Positions 1 through 24,196 of a DNA stretch of 29,483 bases are shown here, one piece after another. The notes beneath the pieces were generated by a model, which saw only the letters and a list, made by a program, of their open reading frames with translations, was not told the DNA's origin and did not search any database. The stretch's first letter is position 1. Every line of letters begins with the position of its first letter. This stretch comes from an uncultured Acidobacteriota bacterium. GTDB lineage: Bacteria; Acidobacteriota; Blastocatellia; Pyrinomonadales; Pyrinomonadaceae. The stretch spans positions 1 through 29,483 of the forward strand of contig CADEEU010000003.1 in assembly GCA_902826385.1 (NCBI GenBank). Direction: 5' to 3'. The translations under genes were made by a program, and so were the position numbers.

Positions 1-1494
1 CGCGCGTTTTTTACCCGGCGGATTCAATCCTGTATTTTTGCACAGGTTGCATTTCACCGCGAGCAGATCGTCGGTTGCCGTGACCGGAGGTGGAAGCTTT
101 GTCTGCCCGAGTGAAAGAACGGAAAGCGCGCTTGAGATTAAGTTGACGTTTGTCTCGATGCCGCCGTGCATCGGCACCATCGATATCGCGTTGTAGGGAC
201 ATTGCGTCGCACAGTCGCCGCAGCCAATGCAGGTCGCGCGGTTGATGTCGATTTCGCCGTCGGGAAAGCGAGCAATGGCTCCGGTCGGGCACCCGGTCAG
301 GCATTCCGGGTCCTGGCAATGCATGCATACGGTCGGGACAAGGACACTTTGCGTTGCACTTCGCGTTGGTTTTACAGGCCGTTCGATGTGAATGCCGCGG
401 CGGACGAGACGCGATGTACCGTGCACTTTGTGACAGGCGAGCGAACAATTGCCGCAACGGATGCACTTCGCCATGTCCATCACGAGCAGGTTGACCGCAT
501 CGGCTATGCCGGTTTCTATCTCGCGGCTGGCGGCGGTCAGCGAACGTTTGTCATCGGGCGGCTCAGGGGCTTCAGACGGTCCTGTTTCCGACATCGCTTT
601 CAATGCGGGTACGACGGCATTGCGTAAATTTGCTTCGTCTCGAAGCCGCGTGACCGCAATCTCCAGCACCTCGATACGGCTGCGGGCGGTTGCGGTAAAT
701 TTCCAGTCGGCGGGTTTGTCTACCGCATTAAGCCCAAGGCACGTCCCGTCACCGATCAGGTCCATAGCGACCGAACCGTCATCGAGCAAAAGGTCGGCCG
801 CAAGCGGATTAAACTCCGCTCCGCTAACTCGCTGAAGCCAGCCGTTGCGGATGTAGATGACGCGATTTACCGGATCGCCCTCGCGAAAAAGAACGTGGTC
901 TTTTTCATAGACAACGAATCGAGCCGCGTCACCTAATTGCTTTCGAACGTCAGCCGTAAGCTGAGAGCCGGCGGCCTCGTTCAGTTCGTTCAAAGTTAAG
1001 GAAAGGCCGTATGAGCGGTAGTTTCGATCAAGAGCCTTACCGAATTTCGGTAGCTTGCGAAGCAGGCGAATAGCGGGGCGCATCATCTCGATCACGATCG
1101 CCGATTCATTACCGCTGACGATCACGGACGCACTTCGCGGCGTGCCGGAAAGCAAGGCCATTTCGCCGAACGAATTTCCGGGCGCAACCTCGCCTACTTT
1201 TCGCAGTGAGCCCTGATCGGTGACAGTGGCGTCAAGCTTACCGGTGACAAGAATATAGAAGATACTGCTTTCCCATGTGTTTTCGACGATGATCGTTTCG
1301 CCAGGCTGGTATTCGAGAAGCCGTGCGTAGGGACCGACTTTTTTGGCGCGATAGCTGCGGCCAAACAGAATGACGTCCATTTCAAGCTCATTCTTAAACT
1401 CCTCGTTCGGAAGTTTTTCGACAAGCTCTGAAACGATATCTACATTCTGGAACGCCTCGATGATCAGGTCGTGATTTGTAATTTCACGCGGCAT
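1..1494 (-). CDS. Two cyclic-nucleotide-binding domains fused to a DmsB/NrfC-type 4x[4Fe-4S] ferredoxin domain (3' end outside the window)
   Basis: Hand-translated, not in the ORF track. ATG at 1494 with GAGAGG upstream; the frame is open for 498 codons to the window edge. First cNMP cassette FGEMALLSGTPRSASV; second domain VLFREGDPVNRVIYIRNG. Cys motifs CIRCGNCSLAC, CMHCQDPECLTGCP, CIGCGDCATQCP and KCNLC. Confidence 0.88.
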   Translation of the reverse strand, partial: MPREITNHDLIIEAFQNVDIVSELVEKLPNEEFKNELEMDVILFGRSYRAKKVGPYARLLEYQPGETIIVENTWESSIFYILVTGKLDATVTDQGSLRKVGEVAPGNSFGEMALLSGTPRSASVIVSGNESAIVIEMMRPAIRLLRKLPKFGKALDRNYRSYGLSLTLNELNEAAGSQLTADVRKQLGDAARFVVYEKDHVLFREGDPVNRVIYIRNGWLQRVSGAEFNPLAADLLLDDGSVAMDLIGDGTCLGLNAVDKPADWKFTATARSRIEVLEIAVTRLRDEANLRNAVVPALKAMSETGPSEAPEPPDDKRSLTAASREIETGIADAVNLLVMDMAKCIRCGNCSLACHKVHGTSRLVRRGIHIERPVKPTRSATQSVLVPTVCMHCQDPECLTGCPTGAIARFPDGEIDINRATCIGCGDCATQCPYNAISMVPMHGGIETNVNLISSALSVLSLGQTKLPPPVTATDDLLAVKCNLCKNTGLNPPGKKRA

Positions 1495-1521: not shown

Positions 1522-1923
1522 TTAGGTTGGTTTGGTGTAGAAGTAAAAAGCAACTCCGCCCGCAATGATCGCAAATGCGAATAAAAGTAAAAGTGCTGCC
1601 GAACCAACAACGATCCAAATGACGTAAGAGTTCTTTTTTGGTTCGGATTTCGGCAGTGCTACGGCCGGTTTAACGACGGGCTGAATTGGAATCTTTGTAA
1701 CGGGATTTAGAGGCTTATCCGGAGTTTCCGAAATGTTCAGGCCCATGTCCGACAGTACCATGTTGAACGCCGTTTGGCTGAACTGAATGGTGTTGCCTGA
1801 GGCTTCGAACTCAGAATTTTCGATCCGCTGCTGTTCAGCCTCAAGCGGACTGCCGCACCCGGGGCAGAATGCTTTTGCCGCGTCTGCCGTTTCTCCGCAA
1901 TTGTTACAACTTCTAATACCCAT
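1522..1923 (-). CDS. Zinc-ribbon protein with C-terminal transmembrane helix
   Basis: N-terminal CNNC-x10-CPGC, a Pro-rich linker and the hydrophobic segment YVIWIVVGSAALLLLFAFAIIAGGVAFYFY; it starts 5 nt after the upstream stop. Confidence 0.75.
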   Translation of the reverse strand: MGIRSCNNCGETADAAKAFCPGCGSPLEAEQQRIENSEFEASGNTIQFSQTAFNMVLSDMGLNISETPDKPLNPVTKIPIQPVVKPAVALPKSEPKKNSYVIWIVVGSAALLLLFAFAIIAGGVAFYFYTKPT

Positions 1924-1928
1924 GCGGA

Positions 1929-2576
1929 TCAGTTCGACTTGTGGCAGATAAGACAGTCCTGCGTGGTTGCAAAGCCCGGTTTCTTTTTCAGCTCAGGACG
2001 CAGCTTTGCGGCCGCATCGTGGCAGGTGTTGCAGTTGATGTGATAAGCAAGCTCGTTGTTGAGATCTTTTTTTATCGATTTGCCACCCTCGGTGTAGAGG
2101 GCTGTCGGCATCGTCTTATCGTCGGGAACACTTCCGTCCTGAAAGTGGCAGAAACGACATTCATTTACTTTTTGCGGTGAGGCTTTCCACGATTCGAGGG
2201 TCAGCGACACCTCTCTTTCGGAAGTAACGAGCGGGGATTTCATCGCCGACTTTGGTTGATCGGTATGATGGCATTCAACGCAGCCGACCACCGATTTGCC
2301 GTCCGGGCTGTAAGGCTTGAACGCATGTGTTTCATGACTGAAAGGAACTTCGCCATATTCGGACAAACTGTCCTTACCGAGCGTGAATTCCTTGCTCATC
2401 GTTTTGTCTGCCGCAGGGGGCTTAGCAGTCGTATTTGCGGTTGCGGGCGTCGGAGACGGTTTTGCCTGAGCCTGTACGGTGGTACGCAAATCCGGCAGAT
2501 CGACCGAACCGATCGCTATGAACGCCGCGGCCGAGACAAAAACTGTTATCACAAATATTTTCAATAGGTTGGTCAT
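1929..2576 (-). CDS. Tetraheme class III (c3-type) cytochrome c, exported or membrane-anchored
   Basis: Hydrophobic N-terminus; FSHETH, then CVECHH, CRFCH, YHINCNTCH and CLICH, which is the c3 ligand pattern. Confidence 0.9.
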   Translation of the reverse strand: MTNLLKIFVITVFVSAAAFIAIGSVDLPDLRTTVQAQAKPSPTPATANTTAKPPAADKTMSKEFTLGKDSLSEYGEVPFSHETHAFKPYSPDGKSVVGCVECHHTDQPKSAMKSPLVTSEREVSLTLESWKASPQKVNECRFCHFQDGSVPDDKTMPTALYTEGGKSIKKDLNNELAYHINCNTCHDAAAKLRPELKKKPGFATTQDCLICHKSN

Positions 2577-2602
2577 ACGGTGGGCCGGGAGAGGGCAATT
2601 AA

Positions 2603-2632
2603 ATTAAACCGTACTTTTCGAACTCATGTCAA
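2603..2632 (-). promoter_or_regulatory. Putative internal sigma70 promoter for the tetraheme cytochrome and downstream genes
   Basis: The minus strand reads TTGACA-N18-TTTAAT within the only ~107-bp gap of the leftward gene run. Confidence 0.45.
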
Positions 2633-2683
2633 TGATTTTGGGACGAGACGAATTCTGTATTTTTGCGACGTAACAATCCATTT

Positions 2684-3553
2684 CTAGTTCGGAAGCATGT
2701 CGAAGCCCGAGCCTGCGTGACATCGTTTGCAGTTGGCAAAATCGGCGTCGCCGAAAGCTCGAACGTTGTTGTGGCAGGTGGCACAGCTTGTTCGATTGCC
2801 GTCGGCTTTGCGATGACCGTGTACGAGAGGCAATGTAACCTGGCGTGATTGCGGAGCACGAGCAACAATATCGTGACACTCGTTACAGGAAACTCCTTGG
2901 GCAGAAGAATGAGATGCGTGGCTGAAAACCGCACGGAATGCGTATCGCGATTGCGGCGTGCGGCTGTAGGGGGCGAGTTCGTGACAGACGTTGCACGAAC
3001 CGATCTTGCTCTCCGGCGTGTGGCAGGATAAACAATCTGCGTGAGCACTTATCCCCGCGGGAATCGATTTAGCCGCACCGGCAGGTGAATGACACGCAAC
3101 GCAGCCGTTACGCGGCTCGGCGGCCCCGCGTGAGTGAACAGCGTGGTCGAACTTCATATTAAAGCCTTCTGAAAACTTTGCGGGAAATGCCGCAACCGTC
3201 GGCGGCGATACATTCAGGTCTTGATGACAAATGGCGCACATCTTCGGCTCTTGCGACGTGAACTGATTTAGATGACAGCCAATGCACGAATCGTGTCCGG
3301 CGTATTTCAATTCCATCGAAACCTTCAACGATCCGGATTCGCGTTGGTGGCAGGAATCGCAAGCGAAAGATTGATGCTCGGGAATGCGGTGAGAGAAATT
3401 TTCAAACGTTTTTTGCGAAGTTCGCACTAACGGAGGTTCGGGCGTTTCCAACGAGGTGATTGTCGGCTGAAGACGTTCGCCCTTTTGAAGGCACGATGCA
3501 ACAAAGATCGCGAATACGATTGCGAGAATGCCTTTCTTTAAGAATGTTTTCAT
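2684..3553 (-). CDS. Nonaheme cytochrome c lipoprotein (three c7-like triheme modules)
   Basis: Start reassigned to ATG 3553 (MKTFLKKGILAIVFAIFVASC, lipobox-like VASC). Nine motifs: CDSCH, CIGCH, CAICH, CVACH, CLSCH, CNVCH, CNECH, CATCH, CKRCH, in triplets each preceded by F[S/D]H..H. Confidence 0.88.
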   Translation of the reverse strand: MKTFLKKGILAIVFAIFVASCLQKGERLQPTITSLETPEPPLVRTSQKTFENFSHRIPEHQSFACDSCHQRESGSLKVSMELKYAGHDSCIGCHLNQFTSQEPKMCAICHQDLNVSPPTVAAFPAKFSEGFNMKFDHAVHSRGAAEPRNGCVACHSPAGAAKSIPAGISAHADCLSCHTPESKIGSCNVCHELAPYSRTPQSRYAFRAVFSHASHSSAQGVSCNECHDIVARAPQSRQVTLPLVHGHRKADGNRTSCATCHNNVRAFGDADFANCKRCHAGSGFDMLPN

Positions 3554-3588
3554 TAACGCGGTTTGTTGGCCTGCTTCATTCCATCCAC

Positions 3589-4611
3589 TCAATTCTGATG
3601 GCTCGGCGGAATCGGGAACCTTCCGACCTCGGGCGAATGGCAGTAAATACACTGAAACGTCGGTTTCTTTTCCTCCAAACTCGCCTCCCGTTTTCCGATC
3701 TCTTCGCGAATCACAGGTCCGTGGCACGAACTCGTGCTGCACGTCAGGATAGGCACGTCCGCATCCTTCATCTTTGCTATGTCGGAGTTTTGCGCAATTC
3801 GGACGTGACAGGTCATACAGTCTTTATTGACGTGGTTTTTGCTCAAGTGATCGAACTTTATCGAATACCGGCTGATTGTGTTCGAATCGAAATACGGTGT
3901 CGTCAATTTATGACAACCCGCGCAATCAGTACGGGCGGGTTTTTGATTTTGATAATGACACGTGAAACAGGACGCATGCGAGTTCGGCGAATCTTTGAAA
4001 AAACCTGCAGCGGGCAGAAACGCTCCGGTCGCTGCTTCGACAAGCGGCTTCACCCCAGCTGAAACACGCGGGCCGTATTTTGGAAGTTTTTCCGTCGTTT
4101 TATGACAGATCGCGCAGTTATTGAATTCAGGCGTTTTCGGATCGTCTGCGGATCGAAAATTAGTCGGAACAAAATGGGCGACCACAGTTTCCGTTTGTTT
4201 GACGTTCCTTGCGATCAAATCCTGATGGACGTCGTGAGGGAAAACAATTGAAAATTCCTGCGAACGGGAACGAACGGGAAACGGAAATCTGGCCGCACCT
4301 CGTGGGCCGGGATTCGTGTGACAACCCGCACAGATCGCCGGTCGGTTACCGCTGAAAAAATCGCGGCGGTGACAATTGATGCATGATGCATGGCCCGGAA
4401 AGTCAGCGACGTCCGGATAGCCGCGAGTTGAAACCCAATTGGACGTCGGAACTTTGTGGCATGAACTGCAGTCGATCTTTTTGTGTGAAGCAGAGGCGTG
4501 CGAGAACCCTTTGTCACGCCGCTGGGCCGAAGCCGGGTCGGACGGACCGAGAAACATCACGGCCGCAGCCGACGCAAAAAAAGCAAAAATGAACAAGACG
4601 CGAAGTTTCAT
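3589..4611 (-). CDS. Nonaheme cytochrome c (three c7-like modules; 8 CXXCH plus 1 CX4CH), Sec signal peptide
   Basis: ATG 4611 overlaps the upstream TGA (ATGA). Motifs CSSCH, CINCH, CAGCH, CAICH, CFTCH, CAGCH, CMTCH, CSTSSCH, CIYCH; signal peptide ends ASA-Q. Confidence 0.88.
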   Translation of the reverse strand: MKLRVLFIFAFFASAAAVMFLGPSDPASAQRRDKGFSHASASHKKIDCSSCHKVPTSNWVSTRGYPDVADFPGHASCINCHRRDFFSGNRPAICAGCHTNPGPRGAARFPFPVRSRSQEFSIVFPHDVHQDLIARNVKQTETVVAHFVPTNFRSADDPKTPEFNNCAICHKTTEKLPKYGPRVSAGVKPLVEAATGAFLPAAGFFKDSPNSHASCFTCHYQNQKPARTDCAGCHKLTTPYFDSNTISRYSIKFDHLSKNHVNKDCMTCHVRIAQNSDIAKMKDADVPILTCSTSSCHGPVIREEIGKREASLEEKKPTFQCIYCHSPEVGRFPIPPSHQN

Positions 4612-5372
4612 TTTTGCTCGCACGCTCCTGTTCCGCATTGCGGCAGATCTTTCACGATGACTTCACAATTTTTTATTGTTTTACCCGCTTCCGGCACCTG
4701 TAAATTAAGTTTTGCCGTTTTGCCTGGTTCGACCGAAACCTCGCACGCCCAGACATAGCTCTTCTTTCCCACTTCCATCGCCAAGATGTTCGACACCGTA
4801 AACTTTGTCGCGACCGGCACCGGAATATCAATGAAGATAGATTTGACCGTAATGGTATCGGTCATCGACGACTGAAGCGGTTTTGCGTTACCGAGCAGGG
4901 TTTCCGAAAGCGTTCGTTTTTGAAGGTAAAAACCGTTGACCAGGTTCGCCGACATGTTGGTCAAAAGCCAGTCACGGGCGATCGCGGGTTTAGATCGGAA
5001 CTGCGTCATGCCTTTTGTGAATGCCGCCTTAAATTCCGGCACACTCTGAATCTCGCTCTCCGACGGCGTCCGGCAATATGGCGATTCGCAATCGGCCGCC
5101 TGCAGCCAGCAGATGAACGGCTGGCTGGCCTTCGCCCGCTTGTAATAGCAATCACGCGAAACGACCTCGGCGGTTCTGATCCGCTCGAGCAGGGAAGAGT
5201 TTTCTTTGAGTCCACCAGTAAAAAGATAGAAACGTTTCCGCGTCAACTTCTCCACCTTGCCGTCGATCTTCACCCGGCCTGAAACTTCGAGAGCTCCTGT
5301 CGAGGCAGCCTGCGGCAAAGCCATCGGTGCCAGAAGAAACGTTAAGAATGTGACAGCGAGACAGCGAGGCAT
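4608..5372 (-). CDS. Hypothetical secreted Cys-rich protein
   Basis: 254-aa ORF with a signal-peptide-like start and 8 Cys in the mature part but no CXXCH; tightly coupled to both neighbours (3-nt gap, 4-nt overlap). Confidence 0.75.
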   Translation of the reverse strand: MPRCLAVTFLTFLLAPMALPQAASTGALEVSGRVKIDGKVEKLTRKRFYLFTGGLKENSSLLERIRTAEVVSRDCYYKRAKASQPFICWLQAADCESPYCRTPSESEIQSVPEFKAAFTKGMTQFRSKPAIARDWLLTNMSANLVNGFYLQKRTLSETLLGNAKPLQSSMTDTITVKSIFIDIPVPVATKFTVSNILAMEVGKKSYVWACEVSVEPGKTAKLNLQVPEAGKTIKNCEVIVKDLPQCGTGACEQK

Positions 5373-5375
5373 AAT

Positions 5376-7031
5376 CTACGGCAGAGTCGGACGGGCTGGG
5401 AACTTTAAGAAAGGAAGCCGGACGCCGCGTACCAGCACTCGGTCGGAACGCATCTCGACGGCAGGGGCAAAATTATTCGCACCTGCGGCAGCTATAAAAT
5501 CGTCCTGATCGATGCCGTCGCCGCTAACCCCGATTCCGCCCGCGAGCACGCCGCCTTTGTAAATTGGCAGGCCGCCTGCAAAAATCTGAATACCGTTCGG
5601 TAATTCCGGAATTGTTGTGCACGGACACGGAGCCATGCCGCCGCGTTTCTGTCGGCCGTACGCGCGACAGCTTACAGGCGGAGAAACGAGAGCGGTCCGA
5701 ATAAGATCCAACTGAAGCCCCACATTGAACGGGCTCCAATTAGAAAGCGGCGTGCTGAACGGACCAGCAGTTGTATTATTAATACCGTCCGGGAACAGAG
5801 GTCGATGTAGAAAACCAACCGCACGGTCACTAAACGCCACCGAGCCGTTCAAACCAATTCCGTCCGCCGCCGCTCTCGTAACGTAGCTGCCAAATCCGGC
5901 GGCGTTCAATTTTGTCGCAGCGTCCGGACGCGCGAAGAACATCGACGTACGCGCCTTTTGTACCGAAACGTCCAGCCCAAAAATCGGAGCATCGTTTTGA
6001 CCGAAAATTCCAAGAACCGCGCCGTTGACATCGACCACGGCGACGTTCACACGCGCGTTGCCGCCGATCGGCTGACGAATCCCGGCTCTCGTGATATTCG
6101 CGATCTGTGCCGCCGAGGCGAGTATCTGCTGAACGTCCGCAAGCGTCAGAACCGTTCCGGCCGTTGTTGGAAAACGTACAGTCGCTCGTCCCGGAACCCC
6201 ACCCGCCGTCGTTGGAAAAAAATCGCTCGCCGGCGCGGCTATTACAGGAGCGGTAACGCTACCAGGCAGACTGCCGAACGGCGTCGTCGGCACGTCCGGC
6301 ACGGTCGCATTGTTTAGATAGGGAAGCCGGATTCCTTCGACAAGAATATTGTCGCCGCGGATCAGTGGCGGCGATTCAAATCCGCGCACTGCGGCGATCG
6401 CAATGATCTCTTCCACAGCCTGATCGTTATCCAGCGGGTTGCGATCGATCGTGTAAAGTCCGTCGCCCTCAATACCGACGCCTCCGACCGCGAATCCATT
6501 TTTATAAACCGGTATGCCGCCGGGATCGCCGGAAAGCCCGAGAGGCAAACCCTCGATCGCAACATCCGAACACGGAAGAGTGGAAAATTGCACGCCGTAA
6601 AGCGGTCCACCGGGACGATTGTCGATGCCGGGCGGGAAATGTTCCTGAATGATGAACGAAGCCGTGCGAGTGGTGAATGCGTTACCGGACGTAGAAAACA
6701 AGCCGGCCGTGCCAGCCTTTGAATACGAAGCCGCGGCGCTCGGCACGATCAAATTCTCGAGTCCCTGACCGGCCGTTCCGACGCTTCTGATAAGCGTCGT
6801 TGATGATGCGCCGGTCATCGCGAATGTGCCCAGCAGATTACCCTCATTGTCCGTAACTGAAACCGTTACGCGCTGATTCAATGCGCCAGCGGCAGAAACG
6901 GCCTGCGCAATTATCCGCTGAACATCGACGACTGTAAGACTGTTTTGAGAAAAGACAGGAAGATTAAAAAGAAGCAGGATCGCGGCACTGGCAAAAAACT
7001 CAAATTTTTTCACCCGGCATTTTCGGTTCAT
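5376..7031 (-). CDS. Secreted heme-binding protein with two GlcG/HbpS (DUF336) domains
   Basis: Two repeats of LT..DVQ.I.A.A...A...V.V.V.D..G..LG.F, each followed by G.P.YK.G...GG.G..GDG.D motifs; N-terminal signal peptide (VFS-Q). The start could alternatively be the GTG six codons downstream. Confidence 0.82.
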   Translation of the reverse strand: MNRKCRVKKFEFFASAAILLLFNLPVFSQNSLTVVDVQRIIAQAVSAAGALNQRVTVSVTDNEGNLLGTFAMTGASSTTLIRSVGTAGQGLENLIVPSAAASYSKAGTAGLFSTSGNAFTTRTASFIIQEHFPPGIDNRPGGPLYGVQFSTLPCSDVAIEGLPLGLSGDPGGIPVYKNGFAVGGVGIEGDGLYTIDRNPLDNDQAVEEIIAIAAVRGFESPPLIRGDNILVEGIRLPYLNNATVPDVPTTPFGSLPGSVTAPVIAAPASDFFPTTAGGVPGRATVRFPTTAGTVLTLADVQQILASAAQIANITRAGIRQPIGGNARVNVAVVDVNGAVLGIFGQNDAPIFGLDVSVQKARTSMFFARPDAATKLNAAGFGSYVTRAAADGIGLNGSVAFSDRAVGFLHRPLFPDGINNTTAGPFSTPLSNWSPFNVGLQLDLIRTALVSPPVSCRAYGRQKRGGMAPCPCTTIPELPNGIQIFAGGLPIYKGGVLAGGIGVSGDGIDQDDFIAAAGANNFAPAVEMRSDRVLVRGVRLPFLKFPARPTLP

Positions 7032-9373: not shown

Positions 9374-9401
9374 CTAAAACTAATTGCGAAGAATACAAAC
9401 C

Positions 9402-12400
9402 ATGATCGCAAAGAGCAACAAACAAAATCGGCTCAAGCTCATCGTCCTGATCGTCTTTGCGTTTCTCGCGACGGTGGTTTATTGGAAACATTCCTCGCAC
9501 GCTCAGAATGCGGCGAACACGAACGGTCGTCCTGCCCCATCGACTGAGACCTCAACGACACCGACCACAACGCCGGAAGTAAAACTCGAAGGCTGCCTGA
9601 AATGTCATAACAACATAGAGCCGATGCATCGCTACAACACTCGCGGCGATGTGTTCGATACGCTCGATGAAGGGAGGGATGCACAGGGCCTAACCTGCAC
9701 GGCATGTCATGGCGGCAACCCGGCGGCGATCACGCAAAGGGAAGCTCACGTGCAGCCGAAATTTCCGAAAGAGTGGAATTGCAAAAACGGAGATTGTTCC
9801 AGCCGAAATCCGGAGCGTACGAACACGCTGCTCGCACGCGAAAGCTCGGAATTTGTGAGGTTCGTGAATCCCGGCGATTTTCGTGTCATCGCACAATCCT
9901 GTGGAGAATGCCACGCGGACGAAAATCAAAAAGTTTCACGCGGGATGATGGCCCACGGGGCGATGTTGTGGGGAGCGGCCCTTTATAACAACGGCTCGCA
10001 TCCGATCAAGGATGCCCAGTTCGGCGAAAGCTACGACGAGAACGGCAACCCGCAAACTTTGTTTCAAGCACCGAAACCGACGCGCGAAGATCAGGCCTCG
10101 AAAGGCCATCTCGAATTCTTGAGCCCGTTGCGGCGATGGGAGATCTCACAGCCGGGCAATGTACTTCGCGTCTTCGAACGCGGCGGCAAACGCCGGTTGG
10201 AGGTTGGGCTGCCCGATAAAGAGGAAGAAGGCGGAAAGCCGGATAAAGGCCTGAGCCCTCGCGGATTGGGCACAAACAACCGCACCGATCCGGTTTTTCT
10301 CGGCATACAAAAAACTCGACTGCTCGACCCGACTTTAAATTTCCTTGGCACTAACGATCACGCCGGCGATTACCGTTCGGCCGGCTGTACTGCGTGTCAC
10401 GTGATTTATGCGAACGACACTGGCGTCGCCGCCAGTTCCTATGCTGCGGCAGGTAATCGCGGATTCTCGCAATCGGCGGACACGAGCATTCCGAAAAACG
10501 AAGCCGGTCATCCGATAAAACATCAGTTCACATCGCGCATCCCGACCACGCAGTGTATGACCTGCCACATGCATCCGGGCACGAATATGGTCGCCACCTA
10601 CTTAGGGCAAACGTGGTGGGACAATGAATCGGACGGAAAAGCGATGTACCCGCAGGATCGGCAGATCAACCCGACGCAGGCTGACGAGGTGAAAAAGCTC
10701 GACAAGAATCCCGAAGGAGCGAGCTTGCGTGGGCTTTGGACCGATTCCGTGTTCTTACAAAACACCGGCACCGCCGATTTCAACAGCAAATTGAAAAATG
10801 TCCAGTTCGCCGATTCGCACGGACACGGGTGGATGTTCAAGAACGTCTATAAAAAAAACCGGAAGGGAAATTTGCTCGATGCGGAAAATAAAATAGTTTC
10901 GCCCGATGATCCCGACAAATTCAAAAAAGCCGTACATCTTAAGGACATCCACCTCGAAAAAGGGATGCACTGCGCCGACTGTCACTTCAGCCAGGACAGC
11001 CACGGTACGGGCATTCTCTACAACGAGCCGCGGGCGGCAGTCGAGGTCGGGTGTGTCGATTGTCACGGATCGATAACGGCCCGTGCGAATGGAATAACAA
11101 GCGGCCCGGCAGCGATGGCTCCGGAAAACCGCAATGAATTGCGTCTTCGCGAACAACAGAAAAAACCACTCATCGGCCGCGACCTGACACGGCTGCGATT
11201 CCGAACGCCGGACGGGAAGCGGACGCCGGTGATGGAAATTTTGACCCGCGACACGACGCGAAAAGACGTCGCCGGAAACGACATCCAGTTGAAACGCGGC
11301 GACGTGATCCAAAATTCCATTGTCGAACCCGGCCTTTGGTGGAAGGTGAAGCAAACCGCCGACACCGTCACGCCCGCCAGCCCTGATTACAACGAAAAAT
11401 CAGCCTACGCCAAAACAATGCAGCGGGACAACGCAACATGGGGCGACGTGAATGTGGCGGAGAATAAACTCGCGCATCAGGACAAAAGCATCACCTGCTA
11501 CGCCTGTCACACGTCTTGGGTGACGAGCTGTTTCGGCTGCCATCTGTCGATGGAGGCGAACCGCAAGATGCCGAACCGCCACAACGAAGGCGGCGATTCG
11601 CGCAACTTTACTTCATATAATTTTCAGGTGATCCGCGACGATATTTTTATGCTTGGCAAAGATGGAACTGTTACAGGACATAAAGTCGCTCCCGTTCGGT
11701 CGAGCTCGGCTGTGCTGGTCTCGTCGCGCAACCAGAACCGTGAATGGATCTATCACCAGCAGCAAACGGTCTCGGCCGAAGGATTTAACGGGCAGGCGTT
11801 TAATACGCACGTGCCGCATACCGTCCGCGGCAAAGAAACGCAGTCGTGCTCCGACTGTCACATGTCCAAAGACCGCGACAATAATGCGTGGCTCGCCCAG
11901 GTGATGCTGCAGGGCAGCAACTTCGTGAACTTTATGGGGCGCTACGTTTATGTCGCGACCGAACACGCGCTTGAGGCCGTCGCCGTCACCGAACACACCG
12001 AACCGCAGGCCGTTTATGGAAGCAATCTGCACCGGCTGGCGTACAAGGACAATTTCGAAAAGTTCGTAAACGGCGGTCGCGAGCTAAAAGAGTATTACGA
12101 AAACAAAGGCCGCCCCGAAGCCTTGCAAGTACAAGTACGCGGCGAGTATGCCTATGTCGCTGCCGGCAAGGGCGGCCTGCGCGTTTACGACATCGCCCAG
12201 ATCGATCACAAGGGGTTTTCCGAACGCATAGTGACCGCTCCAGTCTCGCCGCTCGGGCAACGGTTTTACGTCGATACCAAAAATGCGGTCGCCGTTGCCG
12301 CGCCTTCCATGCTTGCGGTCGATCCAGCAAGATGGCGAACCGTGCGAAATAACGACGGCACTTACAAACAGGTGCCGCCTGAAGAAGCACTAAAATTAAA

Positions 12401-13388
12401 CGCCGAAGCGAAAGCCGCAGGTAAACCTGCCCCAGCAGTTAACGAAGAAGGCCCGATCCATCCGCTATACGCCTATCTATACGTAGCCGATAAAGAGGAG
12501 GGCTTGATCCTGGTCAATGCTGTGACTTTGCTCGACGGCGACCCGCGAAATAATTTTCTAAGTCGAGCCCTGACCTACAATCCCAGCGGCACATTGACTG
12601 GCTCGAACAATATCACGCTCGCGGGAAATTTTGCTTACATTACGACCGAAAAAGAATTGGTGATCGTCGATCTTTCGACGCCTCTGGAACCGAAGATCGC
12701 CGTGCAGATTCCGTTGAATCGACCGAAAGCGGTCGCGGTACAATTTCTATATGCGTTTGTCGTTGACGCAGACGGGATGAAAGTTCTGGATATAAAAGAA
12801 CTTCAGACTTCGGGCAAAGTTTCGCTTGTTGAAACGGCGGTCGTGCCGATTAAAGACGCGAAGGACATTTACGTCGCCCGCACATATGCCTATGTCGCGA
12901 ACGGCTCGGAGGGCGTCGCGATAATCAATGTCGAACGGCCCGAAAATCCGAAACTCGACCAGACATTCAACGATGGAGGCGGCATCAACGACACACATTC
13001 GATAAAAGTCGCGATGACCAATGCCAGCCTTTACGCCTACGTCGCCGACGGCAAAAACGGCCTGAAAGTTTTGCAGTTGACCGACCCGGAAACAATGCCC
13101 GAGTACGCTGGCTTTAGCCCGCGGCCGCAACCGAAACTGATCGCAAGTTTCAAAACAAAAGGCGACGCACTCTCTATCTCAAAAGGCCTCGACCGCGACC
13201 GGGCCGTCGATGAAAGCGGCAACCAGATCGCCGTGTTCGGCCGCCGCGGAGCCAGGCCCTTCACATTCAACGAACTGATGCGGATGCTGCGAAGCGATGA
13301 CGGCAAAGGCGAGTTCTTCTGGGTTTCGGACGAACCGAATAAGCCTTCCCACGCTAAACTCTCGCCGTTATTTTCCTTATACTGGTAA
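9402..13388 (+). CDS. Large exported decaheme cytochrome c fused to C-terminal LVIVD-repeat beta-propeller
   Basis: ATG 9402, signal peptide ending SHA-Q. Ten CXXCH: CLKCH, CTACH, CGECH, CTACH, CMTCH, CADCH, CVDCH, CYACH, CFGCH, CSDCH. Repeats include GEYAYVAAGKGGLRVYDI, YLYVADKEEGLILVN, GNFAYITTEKELVIVDLS, TYAYVANGSEGVAIINV and YAYVADGKNGLKVLQL. Confidence 0.88.
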   Translation: MIAKSNKQNRLKLIVLIVFAFLATVVYWKHSSHAQNAANTNGRPAPSTETSTTPTTTPEVKLEGCLKCHNNIEPMHRYNTRGDVFDTLDEGRDAQGLTCTACHGGNPAAITQREAHVQPKFPKEWNCKNGDCSSRNPERTNTLLARESSEFVRFVNPGDFRVIAQSCGECHADENQKVSRGMMAHGAMLWGAALYNNGSHPIKDAQFGESYDENGNPQTLFQAPKPTREDQASKGHLEFLSPLRRWEISQPGNVLRVFERGGKRRLEVGLPDKEEEGGKPDKGLSPRGLGTNNRTDPVFLGIQKTRLLDPTLNFLGTNDHAGDYRSAGCTACHVIYANDTGVAASSYAAAGNRGFSQSADTSIPKNEAGHPIKHQFTSRIPTTQCMTCHMHPGTNMVATYLGQTWWDNESDGKAMYPQDRQINPTQADEVKKLDKNPEGASLRGLWTDSVFLQNTGTADFNSKLKNVQFADSHGHGWMFKNVYKKNRKGNLLDAENKIVSPDDPDKFKKAVHLKDIHLEKGMHCADCHFSQDSHGTGILYNEPRAAVEVGCVDCHGSITARANGITSGPAAMAPENRNELRLREQQKKPLIGRDLTRLRFRTPDGKRTPVMEILTRDTTRKDVAGNDIQLKRGDVIQNSIVEPGLWWKVKQTADTVTPASPDYNEKSAYAKTMQRDNATWGDVNVAENKLAHQDKSITCYACHTSWVTSCFGCHLSMEANRKMPNRHNEGGDSRNFTSYNFQVIRDDIFMLGKDGTVTGHKVAPVRSSSAVLVSSRNQNREWIYHQQQTVSAEGFNGQAFNTHVPHTVRGKETQSCSDCHMSKDRDNNAWLAQVMLQGSNFVNFMGRYVYVATEHALEAVAVTEHTEPQAVYGSNLHRLAYKDNFEKFVNGGRELKEYYENKGRPEALQVQVRGEYAYVAAGKGGLRVYDIAQIDHKGFSERIVTAPVSPLGQRFYVDTKNAVAVAAPSMLAVDPARWRTVRNNDGTYKQVPPEEALKLNAEAKAAGKPAPAVNEEGPIHPLYAYLYVADKEEGLILVNAVTLLDGDPRNNFLSRALTYNPSGTLTGSNNITLAGNFAYITTEKELVIVDLSTPLEPKIAVQIPLNRPKAVAVQFLYAFVVDADGMKVLDIKELQTSGKVSLVETAVVPIKDAKDIYVARTYAYVANGSEGVAIINVERPENPKLDQTFNDGGGINDTHSIKVAMTNASLYAYVADGKNGLKVLQLTDPETMPEYAGFSPRPQPKLIASFKTKGDALSISKGLDRDRAVDESGNQIAVFGRRGARPFTFNELMRMLRSDDGKGEFFWVSDEPNKPSHAKLSPLFSLYW

Positions 13389-22720: not shown

Positions 22721-24196
22721 ATGATGCCAGCCGACCCAAATCTTGAAATGGAATTTACGTTTGGATCAGAGAGATCCGGCGTTGTCGATGAGCCGATATT
22801 TCAATTGCTGATGCTAGGCGATTGGACCGCCGACGGCGGCCGGCCGGCGCTCGCGCAGCGGCGTGTTATCGAGATCGACCGAGACAATTTTGACGATGTT
22901 ATGAGAGGCCTCGGCGTCGCGCTGAACCTTGAGGTCGGTGGACAAAACGTCGAGTTGGCGTTCGATTCGCTCGACGATTTTCACCCGGATGAGTTATTTA
23001 AGAACGTGCCGATGTTTGCAGAGCTGCGCGATCTAAGAAAGCGTTTGCGAAATTCCGACACATTCAATTCGGCCGCCCGCGAAGTAAGGGAATGGACAGC
23101 GGCCGAGGCGAAGGAAACAGACGTGGAAGTCAGGACCGAAGCGCCCGCAGCCAGCGATAATTTGCTCGACGCGATCCTTTCGAAACCCGAAGGCGGAGCC
23201 GCTGCTTCAAAGGGCGCGGTGTCAGCGGATATTTCCCGTCTGGTCGGCGAACTGGTGAAGCCGCACCTTGTTACCGTAGATGAGAATGAGCAGACGGCAA
23301 TGGTTGCGGCGGTCGACAACGCTACAAGCGAGCTCATGCGGTCGATTCTTCATAACAAGCGTTTTCAGCTGCTCGAAGCTGCCTGGCGAGGGCTTTTCTT
23401 TCTCGTTCGACGGACCGAAACCGCTTCAGACTTGCGCATCTTCATTATGGATGTTCCCAAATCCGACCTAGCGGAAGACGTAAAATCCGAGGCGACGGTG
23501 TTCAAGAAAATAGCCGCCGGGAAGAATGAAGATCCCTTTGCCGCGGTGTTTGGAAATTACGCTTTAAGCCCGGAAGTAGACGATGTCGCCGCACTCATTC
23601 GAATAGCCAAGGCAGCGGCGGCTGTACGAACGCCATTCGTCTCGCATATCCGTCCAGACATTCTGGGCATCGAGTCGCTGGCGAACCATCCCGACTCGGA
23701 CGAATGGGACGTTTCCGGCTCAACCGACGCGGGAAAACTTTGGAACGCAGTGCGCGAAGTACCGGAAACACAATCCCTCGGCCTGGTAATACCTCGCTTT
23801 ATTGCTCGACTGCCTTACGGCGAAGATACGGAACCGACGGAAGCCTTTTCGTTCGAAGAATTTACGGATGAGCACAGACACGACGACTATCTTTGGGCAA
23901 ACGGGTGTTTCGCCGTTGCCCAGCTTCTTGCCAGGACCTACACCGAGCGCGGCTGGCAGTTTGGAGAGTACTTTGCTCAAGACATCAGCGGTTTGCCGCT
24001 GCATGTTTACAAACAGGACGGCCAAGCCGTTTACCAGTCATGCGCCGAGATACAACTTAGTCAGAATGCCGCACAAAAACTAGCGGATTATGGGCTGATG
24101 CCGATAGTTTCATTTAAGAACATGGACCAAATTCGCCTTGTACGGTTTCAATCGATCTCATCTTCGGTGCCGACGCTTGCGGGTCGATGGCAATAA
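22721..24196 (+). CDS. TssB(VipA)-TssC(VipB) contractile-sheath domain fusion protein, C-terminally shortened
   Basis: TssB-like IDRDNFDDVM...F.SLDDFHPD.L; TssC-like ILH...FQ.LEAAWRGL.FLV, PRF.ARLPYG and YLW.N; AAGGAGA Shine-Dalgarno. Confidence 0.82.
   Translation: MMPADPNLEMEFTFGSERSGVVDEPIFQLLMLGDWTADGGRPALAQRRVIEIDRDNFDDVMRGLGVALNLEVGGQNVELAFDSLDDFHPDELFKNVPMFAELRDLRKRLRNSDTFNSAAREVREWTAAEAKETDVEVRTEAPAASDNLLDAILSKPEGGAAASKGAVSADISRLVGELVKPHLVTVDENEQTAMVAAVDNATSELMRSILHNKRFQLLEAAWRGLFFLVRRTETASDLRIFIMDVPKSDLAEDVKSEATVFKKIAAGKNEDPFAAVFGNYALSPEVDDVAALIRIAKAAAAVRTPFVSHIRPDILGIESLANHPDSDEWDVSGSTDAGKLWNAVREVPETQSLGLVIPRFIARLPYGEDTEPTEAFSFEEFTDEHRHDDYLWANGCFAVAQLLARTYTERGWQFGEYFAQDISGLPLHVYKQDGQAVYQSCAEIQLSQNAAQKLADYGLMPIVSFKNMDQIRLVRFQSISSSVPTLAGRWQ

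Follow-up and report, generated by a model that had tools for sequence, protein, structure and literature searches.

A candidate signal-responsive inner-membrane link to multihaem cytochromes in the Acidobacteriota

Comparison with described electron-transfer systems

Complexes of the TmcABCD, HmcABCDEF and DsrMKJOP types, found in sulfate-reducing bacteria, cross the inner membrane by combining periplasmic multihaem cytochromes c, a membrane di-haem cytochrome b and cytoplasmic iron-sulfur (Fe-S) proteins. In NADPH oxidases (NOX), and in particular in the Ca2+-gated NOX5, electrons move outward from NAD(P)H through a flavin and two bis-His haems on transmembrane (TM) helices 3 and 5 (H-x13-H), and a ligand-sensing domain is fused to the chain. 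We analyzed a 29,483-nt stretch of DNA from an uncultured bacterium of the Pyrinomonadaceae (Acidobacteriota; Blastocatellia), namely contig CADEEU010000003.1 of assembly GCA_902826385.1, positions 1 to 29,483; the whole of this stretch is referred to below as the window. At its very beginning, on the minus strand (1..1494), lies the 5′ part of a gene encoding a pair of cyclic nucleotide monophosphate (cNMP)-binding domains, a four-cluster [4Fe-4S] domain and a five-helix membrane module, which is followed on a second contig by genes for an FHA-heptahaem cytochrome and a flavoprotein. Judged from its sequence, the gene product appears to be a regulated link in the inner membrane, belonging to an electron pathway that leads to multihaem cytochromes and is conserved but uncharacterised.

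The system encoded at this locus follows the same logic as the Tmc, Hmc and Dsr complexes, and the best NCBIfam match of its Fe-S domain is DsrO. It differs from them in having no NarI-type cytochrome b, CCG-domain protein or NrfD-like subunit, whereas those complexes possess neither a flavoprotein input from NAD(P)H nor cNMP-binding and FHA domains. The proposed working principle is also that of NOX and ferric-reductase domain (FRD) proteins, and an all-in-one chain, P0243, exists in the present family. However, no homology to this superfamily could be detected with Pfam model PF01794, hhalign (0.1% probability) or Foldseek. In contrast to NOX, the module described here has five helices and a cytoplasmic insert of ~120 residues, an Fe-S relay is placed between flavin and haem, the flavoprotein has a TrxR/YpdA-like fold, and the acceptor would be a cytochrome c instead of O2. 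The system thus resembles both the Tmc/Hmc/Dsr complexes and the NADPH oxidases in its logic, but by tests of family membership it belongs to none of them.

A set of proteins with a similar composition is known from Ferrigenium straubiae. This ‘NHC’ set comprises a nonahaem cytochrome with an FHA domain and one TM helix, a five-TM protein without an InterPro match and a [4Fe-4S] protein (10.64898/2026.01.22.701106, section 6.3.2). Its authors considered FHA-multihaem fusions to be previously unreported, left their function open and saw no cofactor site in the five-TM protein (10.64898/2026.01.22.701106). The core of the present system has the same part list (FHA-1TM-multihaem cytochrome, five-TM protein and [4Fe-4S] protein), the two sets being likened by description only. 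The cytochrome carries nine haems there and seven here, and no cNMP-binding domain is mentioned for the Ferrigenium set; moreover, its Fe-S and TM proteins are products of separate genes, whereas they are fused here and separate in some relatives. No named member of the Gallionellaceae was present among the matches listed by the module-alignment searches, which were mostly fragments or unnamed proteins. Beyond this preprint, we found nothing specific in the literature on the combination of cNMP-binding, Fe-S and cytochrome components.

To our knowledge, inner-membrane entries to extracellular or periplasmic electron-transfer chains have been recognized in few model organisms (CymA, ImcH, CbcL and similar proteins). 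The literature on soil and wastewater Acidobacteriota describes porin-cytochrome clusters and many multihaem cytochromes without a known substrate, but no inner-membrane link, and a component uniting cNMP-binding, Fe-S and membrane parts is absent from the papers on cytochrome clusters of this phylum. The family presented here is a candidate for this link in the abundant Acidobacteriota of soil and wastewater. Should a cyclic nucleotide or phospho-threonine gate its electron flow, this would be a rarely documented type of control of bacterial electron transport.

Domain architecture of the protein and its conserved partners

The minus-strand open reading frame (ORF) 1494..1 comprises exactly 498 codons, beginning with an ATG at 1494 and running without a stop codon through window base 1, which is also base 1 of contig C3 of the source assembly (537 contigs, 86% complete). 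A Shine-Dalgarno sequence, GAGAGG, is located 4 nt 5′ of the ATG, and the start lies 27 nt past the stop codon of the preceding gene. The initial annotation had recognized here a gene missed by the ORF track, and rightly so: the frame was skipped because its 3′ end is open at the contig edge and the track drops open-ended frames. Recovery of the 3′ end, which the same annotation had proposed as a check, was largely achieved, since the last 297 codons of the gene were found at the end of contig C20 (81% identity to a full-length relative). The gap between C3 and C20 within the gene amounts to ~28-29 codons, or ~87 nt. In addition, one public wastewater contig that is identical to the window extends 341 nt beyond its base 1, and a second one, 98.5% identical, extends 943 nt beyond it. 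The top matches are full-length relatives of 824 amino acids (aa) that share 80% identity across all 498 residues; complete relatives among the matches listed have ~820-830 aa, while shorter entries come mostly from short contigs. The full product is accordingly estimated at ~824 aa, with the first 60% encoded in the window and ~326 residues beyond it.

The N-terminal part of the protein contains two stretches matching the Pfam cNMP_binding model (PF00027; E 5.4e-23, 81.2 bits against a cut-off of 27.5), and it resembles the tandem CNB-A/CNB-B arrangement of the PKA regulatory subunit (PKA-R) and PKG, as judged from the sequence match to PKG (E 2.6e-12) and from the fold of the N-terminal model, which is matched by the structure 1rl3_B at Foldseek E 4e-11. 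Domain A (aa ~36-174; 973..1389, minus strand), with its best Pfam stretch at aa 60-131, is canonical and PKA-R/PKG-like in both sequence and fold. Its phosphate-binding cassette, FGEMALLSGTPRSASV (aa 109-124; 1123..1170, minus strand), has the form FGE...PRSAS, with the Gly-Glu and Arg residues present (Glu111 and Arg120), and F-G-E and R are kept in most of the family. Domain B (aa ~181-302; 589..954, minus strand) was delimited by the second Pfam stretch and the secondary structure of the model. In its cassette, CLGLNAVDKPADWKFTATA (aa 252-270; 685..741, minus strand), Gly-Glu is replaced by Gly-Leu and Arg by Phe/Tyr. This degenerate form is conserved throughout the Blastocatellia clade, and the cassette is near-canonical in some distant relatives. 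Site A is therefore predicted to be competent for cyclic nucleotide binding and site B to be degenerate. A helical linker (aa 303-333; 496..588, minus strand), defined from the model secondary structure, connects the sensor pair with the Fe-S domain. The arrangement departs from that of PKA-R and PKG in the degenerate cassette B and in the partner to be regulated, which would be an Fe-S/haem module of the same chain and not a kinase. Neither a signal peptide nor a helix-turn-helix (HTH) domain was identified in the 498-residue fragment by sequence inspection and Pfam.

The Fe-S domain (aa 334-498, incomplete; 1..495, minus strand) is of the DmsB/NrfC-like type with four [4Fe-4S] clusters. It matches Fer4_11 (PF13247, DmsB-type dicluster) with 36.5 bits against a cut-off of 26.2, as well as the ArrB structure 6cz7_B (E 2.5e-15). 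Three complete four-Cys motifs are located at aa 344-354, 390-403 and 422-433, and the first CxxC of the fourth at aa 482-485 (motifs I-IV at nt 433-465, 286-327, 196-231 and 40-51, minus strand). Fourteen of the 16 cluster Cys residues are thus encoded in the window; the remaining two belong to the last C-x3-C-P of motif IV, which is hidden in the inter-contig gap. The relatives carry all 16, each being at least 90% conserved in a 51-sequence alignment. On all these points the reading made in the initial annotation, i.e. an intact first cassette, a second one devoid of GE and Arg, a DmsB/NrfC-type Cys array behind them and the absence of a signal peptide and an HTH domain, agrees with our results.

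An assignment as a DmsB-, NrfC- or DsrO-type subunit of a molybdoenzyme or NrfD complex was considered. None of the NCBIfam equivalogs (DsrO, ArrB, DmsB, NrfC, TtrB, HmcB and HybA) scored above its cut-off and all were far below it, the best being DsrO (67 bits against 200), with HmcB at 50 against 420. Neither the window nor the end of C20 was found to encode a molybdopterin catalytic subunit or an NrfD-like protein. This candidate was rejected on account of the very low scores and the absence of partner genes.

The C-terminal third of the protein is composed of five hydrophobic helices with a charged, helical insert of ~120 residues between TM4 and TM5. TM3 and TM5 each carry two His residues in the arrangement H-x13-H. 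As the predicted topology places the Fe-S domain and the K/R-rich TM2-TM3 loop on the cytoplasmic side, both helices would run in parallel from inside to outside. In an alignment of 51 sequences with identities down to 23%, the only invariant columns are G594, H628, H642, H800 and H814 (P0002 numbering), and the same four His are invariant in a module-only alignment that includes stand-alone modules; overall, their invariance extends to relatives with ~20% identity. Four invariant His on two parallel helices, separated by ~21 Å along each, are the classical sign of two stacked bis-His haems b, a signature established for cytochrome b, NOX and FdnI. The module thus probably ligates two stacked b-type haems, one by each membrane face. 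AlphaFold2, run on a diverse alignment, gave a full-length model with a predicted local distance difference test score (pLDDT) of 86.7 and a predicted template modelling score (pTM) of 0.84; the module modelled alone reached a pLDDT of 90.6.

No Pfam model matches the module significantly. The nearest named family is cytochrome b561/Ni_hydr_CYTB (PF01292), for which the best member, a module fragment, scored 28.1 bits against a cut-off of 30.1 (E 2e-6), with TM1-4 lying on profile positions 3-125. Other members matched PF01292 at E 0.03-0.2 with the last helix only, on positions 132-164, both His being aligned, so that TM1-4 and TM5 fall on the profile in the order expected. A genome-wide scan with PF01292 did not match the gene. 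DUF4405 was matched once, also below threshold (E 5.5e-4). Members of these families (FdnI, HyaC and CybB for PF01292) contain a helical di-haem-b membrane domain of the kind proposed here, but in our module the long cytoplasmic insert splits the domain, two helices bear two His each (2+2), and all matches are sub-threshold.

Membership of the ferric-reductase domain was also considered. The His pairs H628/H642 and H800/H814, spaced by ~13 residues on the parallel TM3 and TM5, have the spacing typical of that domain. An Atlas match named ‘Ferric reductase like transmembrane component’ scored 0.80, and it probably consists of the same stand-alone modules. However, PF01794 produced no match to the module at E up to 10, the gene was not matched in a genome-wide scan with PF01794, and NOX, STEAP and MsrQ chains were absent among the 50 Foldseek matches listed for the module from the Protein Data Bank (PDB). 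The assignment thus found no support in Pfam, the genome scan, hhalign or Foldseek and was set aside. For the present, the module should be regarded as a family without classification that may be very distantly related to the di-haem cytochrome b families, and it would deserve to be defined as a separate family. Automatic names are inconsistent across this one module family: JGI calls a few stand-alone modules ‘cytochrome b561’ and others ‘Ferric reductase like transmembrane component’, and b561 also occurs among precomputed labels. P0424, P0427, P0443 and other stand-alone four-His modules are labelled there as ‘predicted membrane channel-forming protein YqfA (hemolysin III family)’.

Downstream of the gene, contig C20 encodes a 478-aa protein composed of an FHA domain, a single TM helix and a heptahaem cytochrome (7 CxxCH), and, further downstream, a membrane-anchored flavoprotein with Fer4 and Pyr_redox domains, whose best family matches are YpdA/TrxR-like. 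Gene order was compared among 53 Blastocatellia loci with full flanks, a sample that reached close relatives. The FHA-heptahaem cytochrome is found downstream in 52 of these loci and the Fer4/FAD oxidoreductase in all 53. An FHA protein is also encoded directly downstream in three more distant cases: a ‘Deltaproteobacteria’ metagenome-assembled genome (MAG), where the protein again has 7 CxxCH, a relative from a metagenome and one from a third lineage. Neither a NarI-like cytochrome b nor a CCG-domain Fe-S subunit was found in the protein or its neighbours.

The same components are joined or separated differently across the family. The 1110-aa chain P0243 unites the flavoprotein, two cNMP-binding domains, the Fe-S domain and the module (hhalign 99.4%), while in P0170 a heptahaem cytochrome is attached to the module through an extra TM helix (hhalign 99.9%). 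In another acidobacterial family three genes encode a soluble protein with Pyr_redox, two cNMP-binding and Fer4 domains, a stand-alone module and a cytochrome with two FHA domains. A minimal version (L011:2478-6392, plus strand) consists of a Fer4/Pyr_redox protein, a stand-alone module and a multihaem cytochrome, with neither cNMP-binding nor FHA domains; this set may serve as a natural ‘unregulated’ control. As far as these architectures indicate, the core of the system is a path from flavoprotein/Fe-S domain to membrane module to cytochrome c, and the cNMP-binding and FHA domains are accessory, as expected of regulators.

Close full-length relatives occur in at least 103 species-level genomes, and 208 sequence clusters (50% identity) match at E < 1e-30; all 80 loci kept for analysis are from MAGs. 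Members of the family are found in the Acidobacteriota and Myxococcota, including a distant one in the cultured Plesiocystis pacifica SIR-1 (ABCS01000045.1; protein WP_006973339.1), which makes the proposed function accessible to testing. In this strain the gene is followed by one for a TM-anchored cytochrome c, which has at least four CxxCH before the contig breaks off. On the opposite strand, ~4.7 kb upstream of the gene, a Ser/Thr kinase is encoded. The fusion of the soluble domains is already on record, under the names ‘cyclic nucleotide-binding domain-containing protein’ (NCBI) and ‘Fe-S-cluster-containing dehydrogenase component/CRP-like cAMP-binding protein’ (JGI); the membrane module has gone unrecognised and the family is uncharacterised.

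Proposed electron path and alternative explanations

We propose that the system is a signal-gated conduit through which electrons of cytoplasmic NAD(P)H cross the inner membrane and reach multihaem cytochromes in the periplasm, and we consider this function probable. We are more confident of the structural assignment than of the mechanism as a whole, and less confident of the direction of flow and its gating. NAD(P)H would feed the neighbouring Fer4/Pyr_redox protein with its flavin and two clusters, from which electrons would pass to the four [4Fe-4S] clusters of the protein described here. The two putative haems of the five-helix module would then carry them across the membrane to the single-pass FHA-heptahaem cytochrome, and the further periplasmic and outer multihaem cytochromes of the locus would be the last to receive them. 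Outward flow should be favoured by the membrane potential. Since such flow would drain both NAD(P)H and the membrane potential, tight control makes sense.

A cyclic nucleotide bound at site A may tune or gate the flow, most likely through altered packing of the sensor pair against the Fe-S domain or its donor. The second input would be Ser/Thr phosphorylation, with phospho-threonine read by the FHA domain of the partner cytochrome. The genome encodes class III cyclase domains and has 19 Ser/Thr-kinase matches, which are candidate sources of both signals. The initial annotation had suggested either electron transfer gated by cAMP/cGMP or a redox state that modulates nucleotide sensing. The former appears to be a reasonable inference, and it is made more plausible by the accessory nature of the cNMP-binding domains, which are missing from minimal versions and placed between flavoprotein and Fe-S domain in others; for the latter, the protein offers no apparent output domain on which the redox state could act.

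A bolder form of the proposal can be put forward tentatively. The system might be an analogue of NADPH oxidase built from unrelated parts, i.e. a quinone-independent export valve in which six [4Fe-4S] clusters and two haems b of a new haem-module family lead to a heptahaem cytochrome, switched post-translationally by cyclic nucleotide and, through the FHA partner, by Ser/Thr phosphorylation. If this is true, a second messenger would directly gate an electron-transfer chain of respiratory or extracellular type.

Several observations weigh against the proposed conduit. The module has no significant match in the PDB, either by sequence profile or by fold (best Foldseek E 0.25), and hhalign assigned it a probability of 3.2% against a profile of cytochrome b561 members and of 0.1% against a ferric-reductase (MsrQ-like) profile, the latter being shallow. 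Some bacterial CNB-fold domains bind ligands other than cyclic nucleotides. No RNA run containing the gene turned up, although the search was not directed at RNA. The outward direction of flow and its independence of quinones are predictions that go beyond what sequence shows. Finally, the distribution is patchy: the system is present in 29 of 301 sampled Acidobacteriota genomes, and the module was found at E <= 1e-10 in none of seven other genomes of the same genus (98-99% complete). Because of this patchiness the system is regarded as accessory and not as part of core respiration, and the gene cluster may have been gained or lost recently in the source lineage.

The same parts could in principle conduct in the opposite direction, from extracellular or periplasmic donors such as Fe(II) or reduced humics through cytochromes, haems and Fe-S clusters to the flavoprotein. 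Redox wires are reversible in principle, and the similar-looking set of Ferrigenium straubiae belongs to an Fe(II) oxidiser and has been discussed for electron uptake (10.64898/2026.01.22.701106). That set, however, is likened to ours by its part list, and the hosts encountered here are wastewater and soil heterotrophs. Inward flow would also oppose the inside-negative membrane potential, and reducing NAD(P)+ from such donors would be strongly uphill, while the locus provides no coupling device, so that we consider this direction unlikely. We judge it comparably improbable that the module is a quinone-reactive cytochrome b (of the FdnI, HyaC, NarI or CbcL type) connecting the menaquinone pool with the Fe-S domain and/or the cytochromes. 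Among named families the module resembles, always below threshold, only PF01292, whose members are typically quinone-reactive, and DUF4405, and a few stand-alone modules bear the b561 label in JGI. Nevertheless, in some lineages the NAD(P)H-flavin-FeS input and the cytochrome c output are fused to the module, giving a full path without quinone; no quinone-site motif was identified in the module, and its His are arranged 2+2 on two helices as opposed to 1+1+2 in FdnI-type proteins.

Signalling domains of two kinds, together with the patchy, accessory distribution, would also suit a sensor of redox state or second messengers, in which clusters and haems report redox and the cNMP-binding and FHA domains integrate signals, the whole not being a bulk carrier. 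To this we attach very little weight: the protein and its constant partners contain no output domain (HTH, kinase, GGDEF, etc.), minimal versions occur without any signalling domain, and four clusters, two haems and at least seven c-type haems make up the anatomy of a wire. A further reading, suggested by the initial annotation, is that of a cNMP-gated ferredoxin with four clusters, soluble in the cytoplasm and terminating close to the window edge, and the window indeed shows soluble domains only. Its order of domains, one canonical and one degenerate cNMP-binding domain followed by a four-cluster ferredoxin, was upheld, but the free-standing sensor-ferredoxin was not. The ORF has no stop at the contig start, public contigs go beyond base 1 and complete relatives among the matches listed reach ~820-830 aa; the gene was broken by the assembly and continues on C20, the full protein includes the five-helix, four-His module, and its operon supplies the FHA-heptahaem and Fer4/FAD partners. 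This reading was therefore rejected and retains a negligible probability. In comparison with all of these, the outward conduit is preferred.

Other genes of the operon and the window

The gene is preceded on the minus strand by a series of genes that form one operon with it. In the direction of transcription, these encode a double HbpS-like secreted protein (551 aa) and a 254-aa secreted protein without a known family at the operon head (4608..7031), three multihaem cytochromes c with 8+1, 9 and 4 haem motifs (1929..4638), and a protein of 133 aa that begins with a zinc ribbon and has a TM helix at its C-terminus (1522..1923). The upstream genes are kept in 46-50 of the 53 Blastocatellia loci, the cytochrome genes showing this same range and the zinc-ribbon gene being found in 46. 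Scans for promoters and terminators gave results at chance level. In the nonahaem ORF (2684-3742, minus strand), the mechanically assigned GTG start at 3742 overlaps the adjacent cytochrome gene (3589-4638, minus strand) by 154 nt. An internal Met ~60 codons in, followed by a lipoprotein-like hydrophobic stretch ending in Cys, looks like the real start.

Two genes are transcribed divergently from the operon. One encodes an outer-membrane-type protein that carries a CarboxypepD_reg domain, the other a decahaem LVIVD protein of 1334 aa. The latter protein (9384-13388, plus strand) has 10 CxxCH across ~750 residues and, after these, LVIVD beta-propeller repeats. In the locus of a distant relative, too, a gene for an LVIVD protein lies 3′ of the FHA gene.

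Two genes outside this neighbourhood are worth recording. The 491-aa ORF at 22721-24196 (plus strand) matches both T6SS_VipA (E 3.6e-16) and the N-terminal domain of the VipB sheath (E 1.2e-58) and is, by these matches, identified as a TssB-TssC fusion; no further type VI secretion system (T6SS) genes were seen in the window. On contig C20, a GH92 glycosidase ORF (L003:7360-10656, plus strand) includes, close to its start, a few consecutive X residues (masked or N bases).

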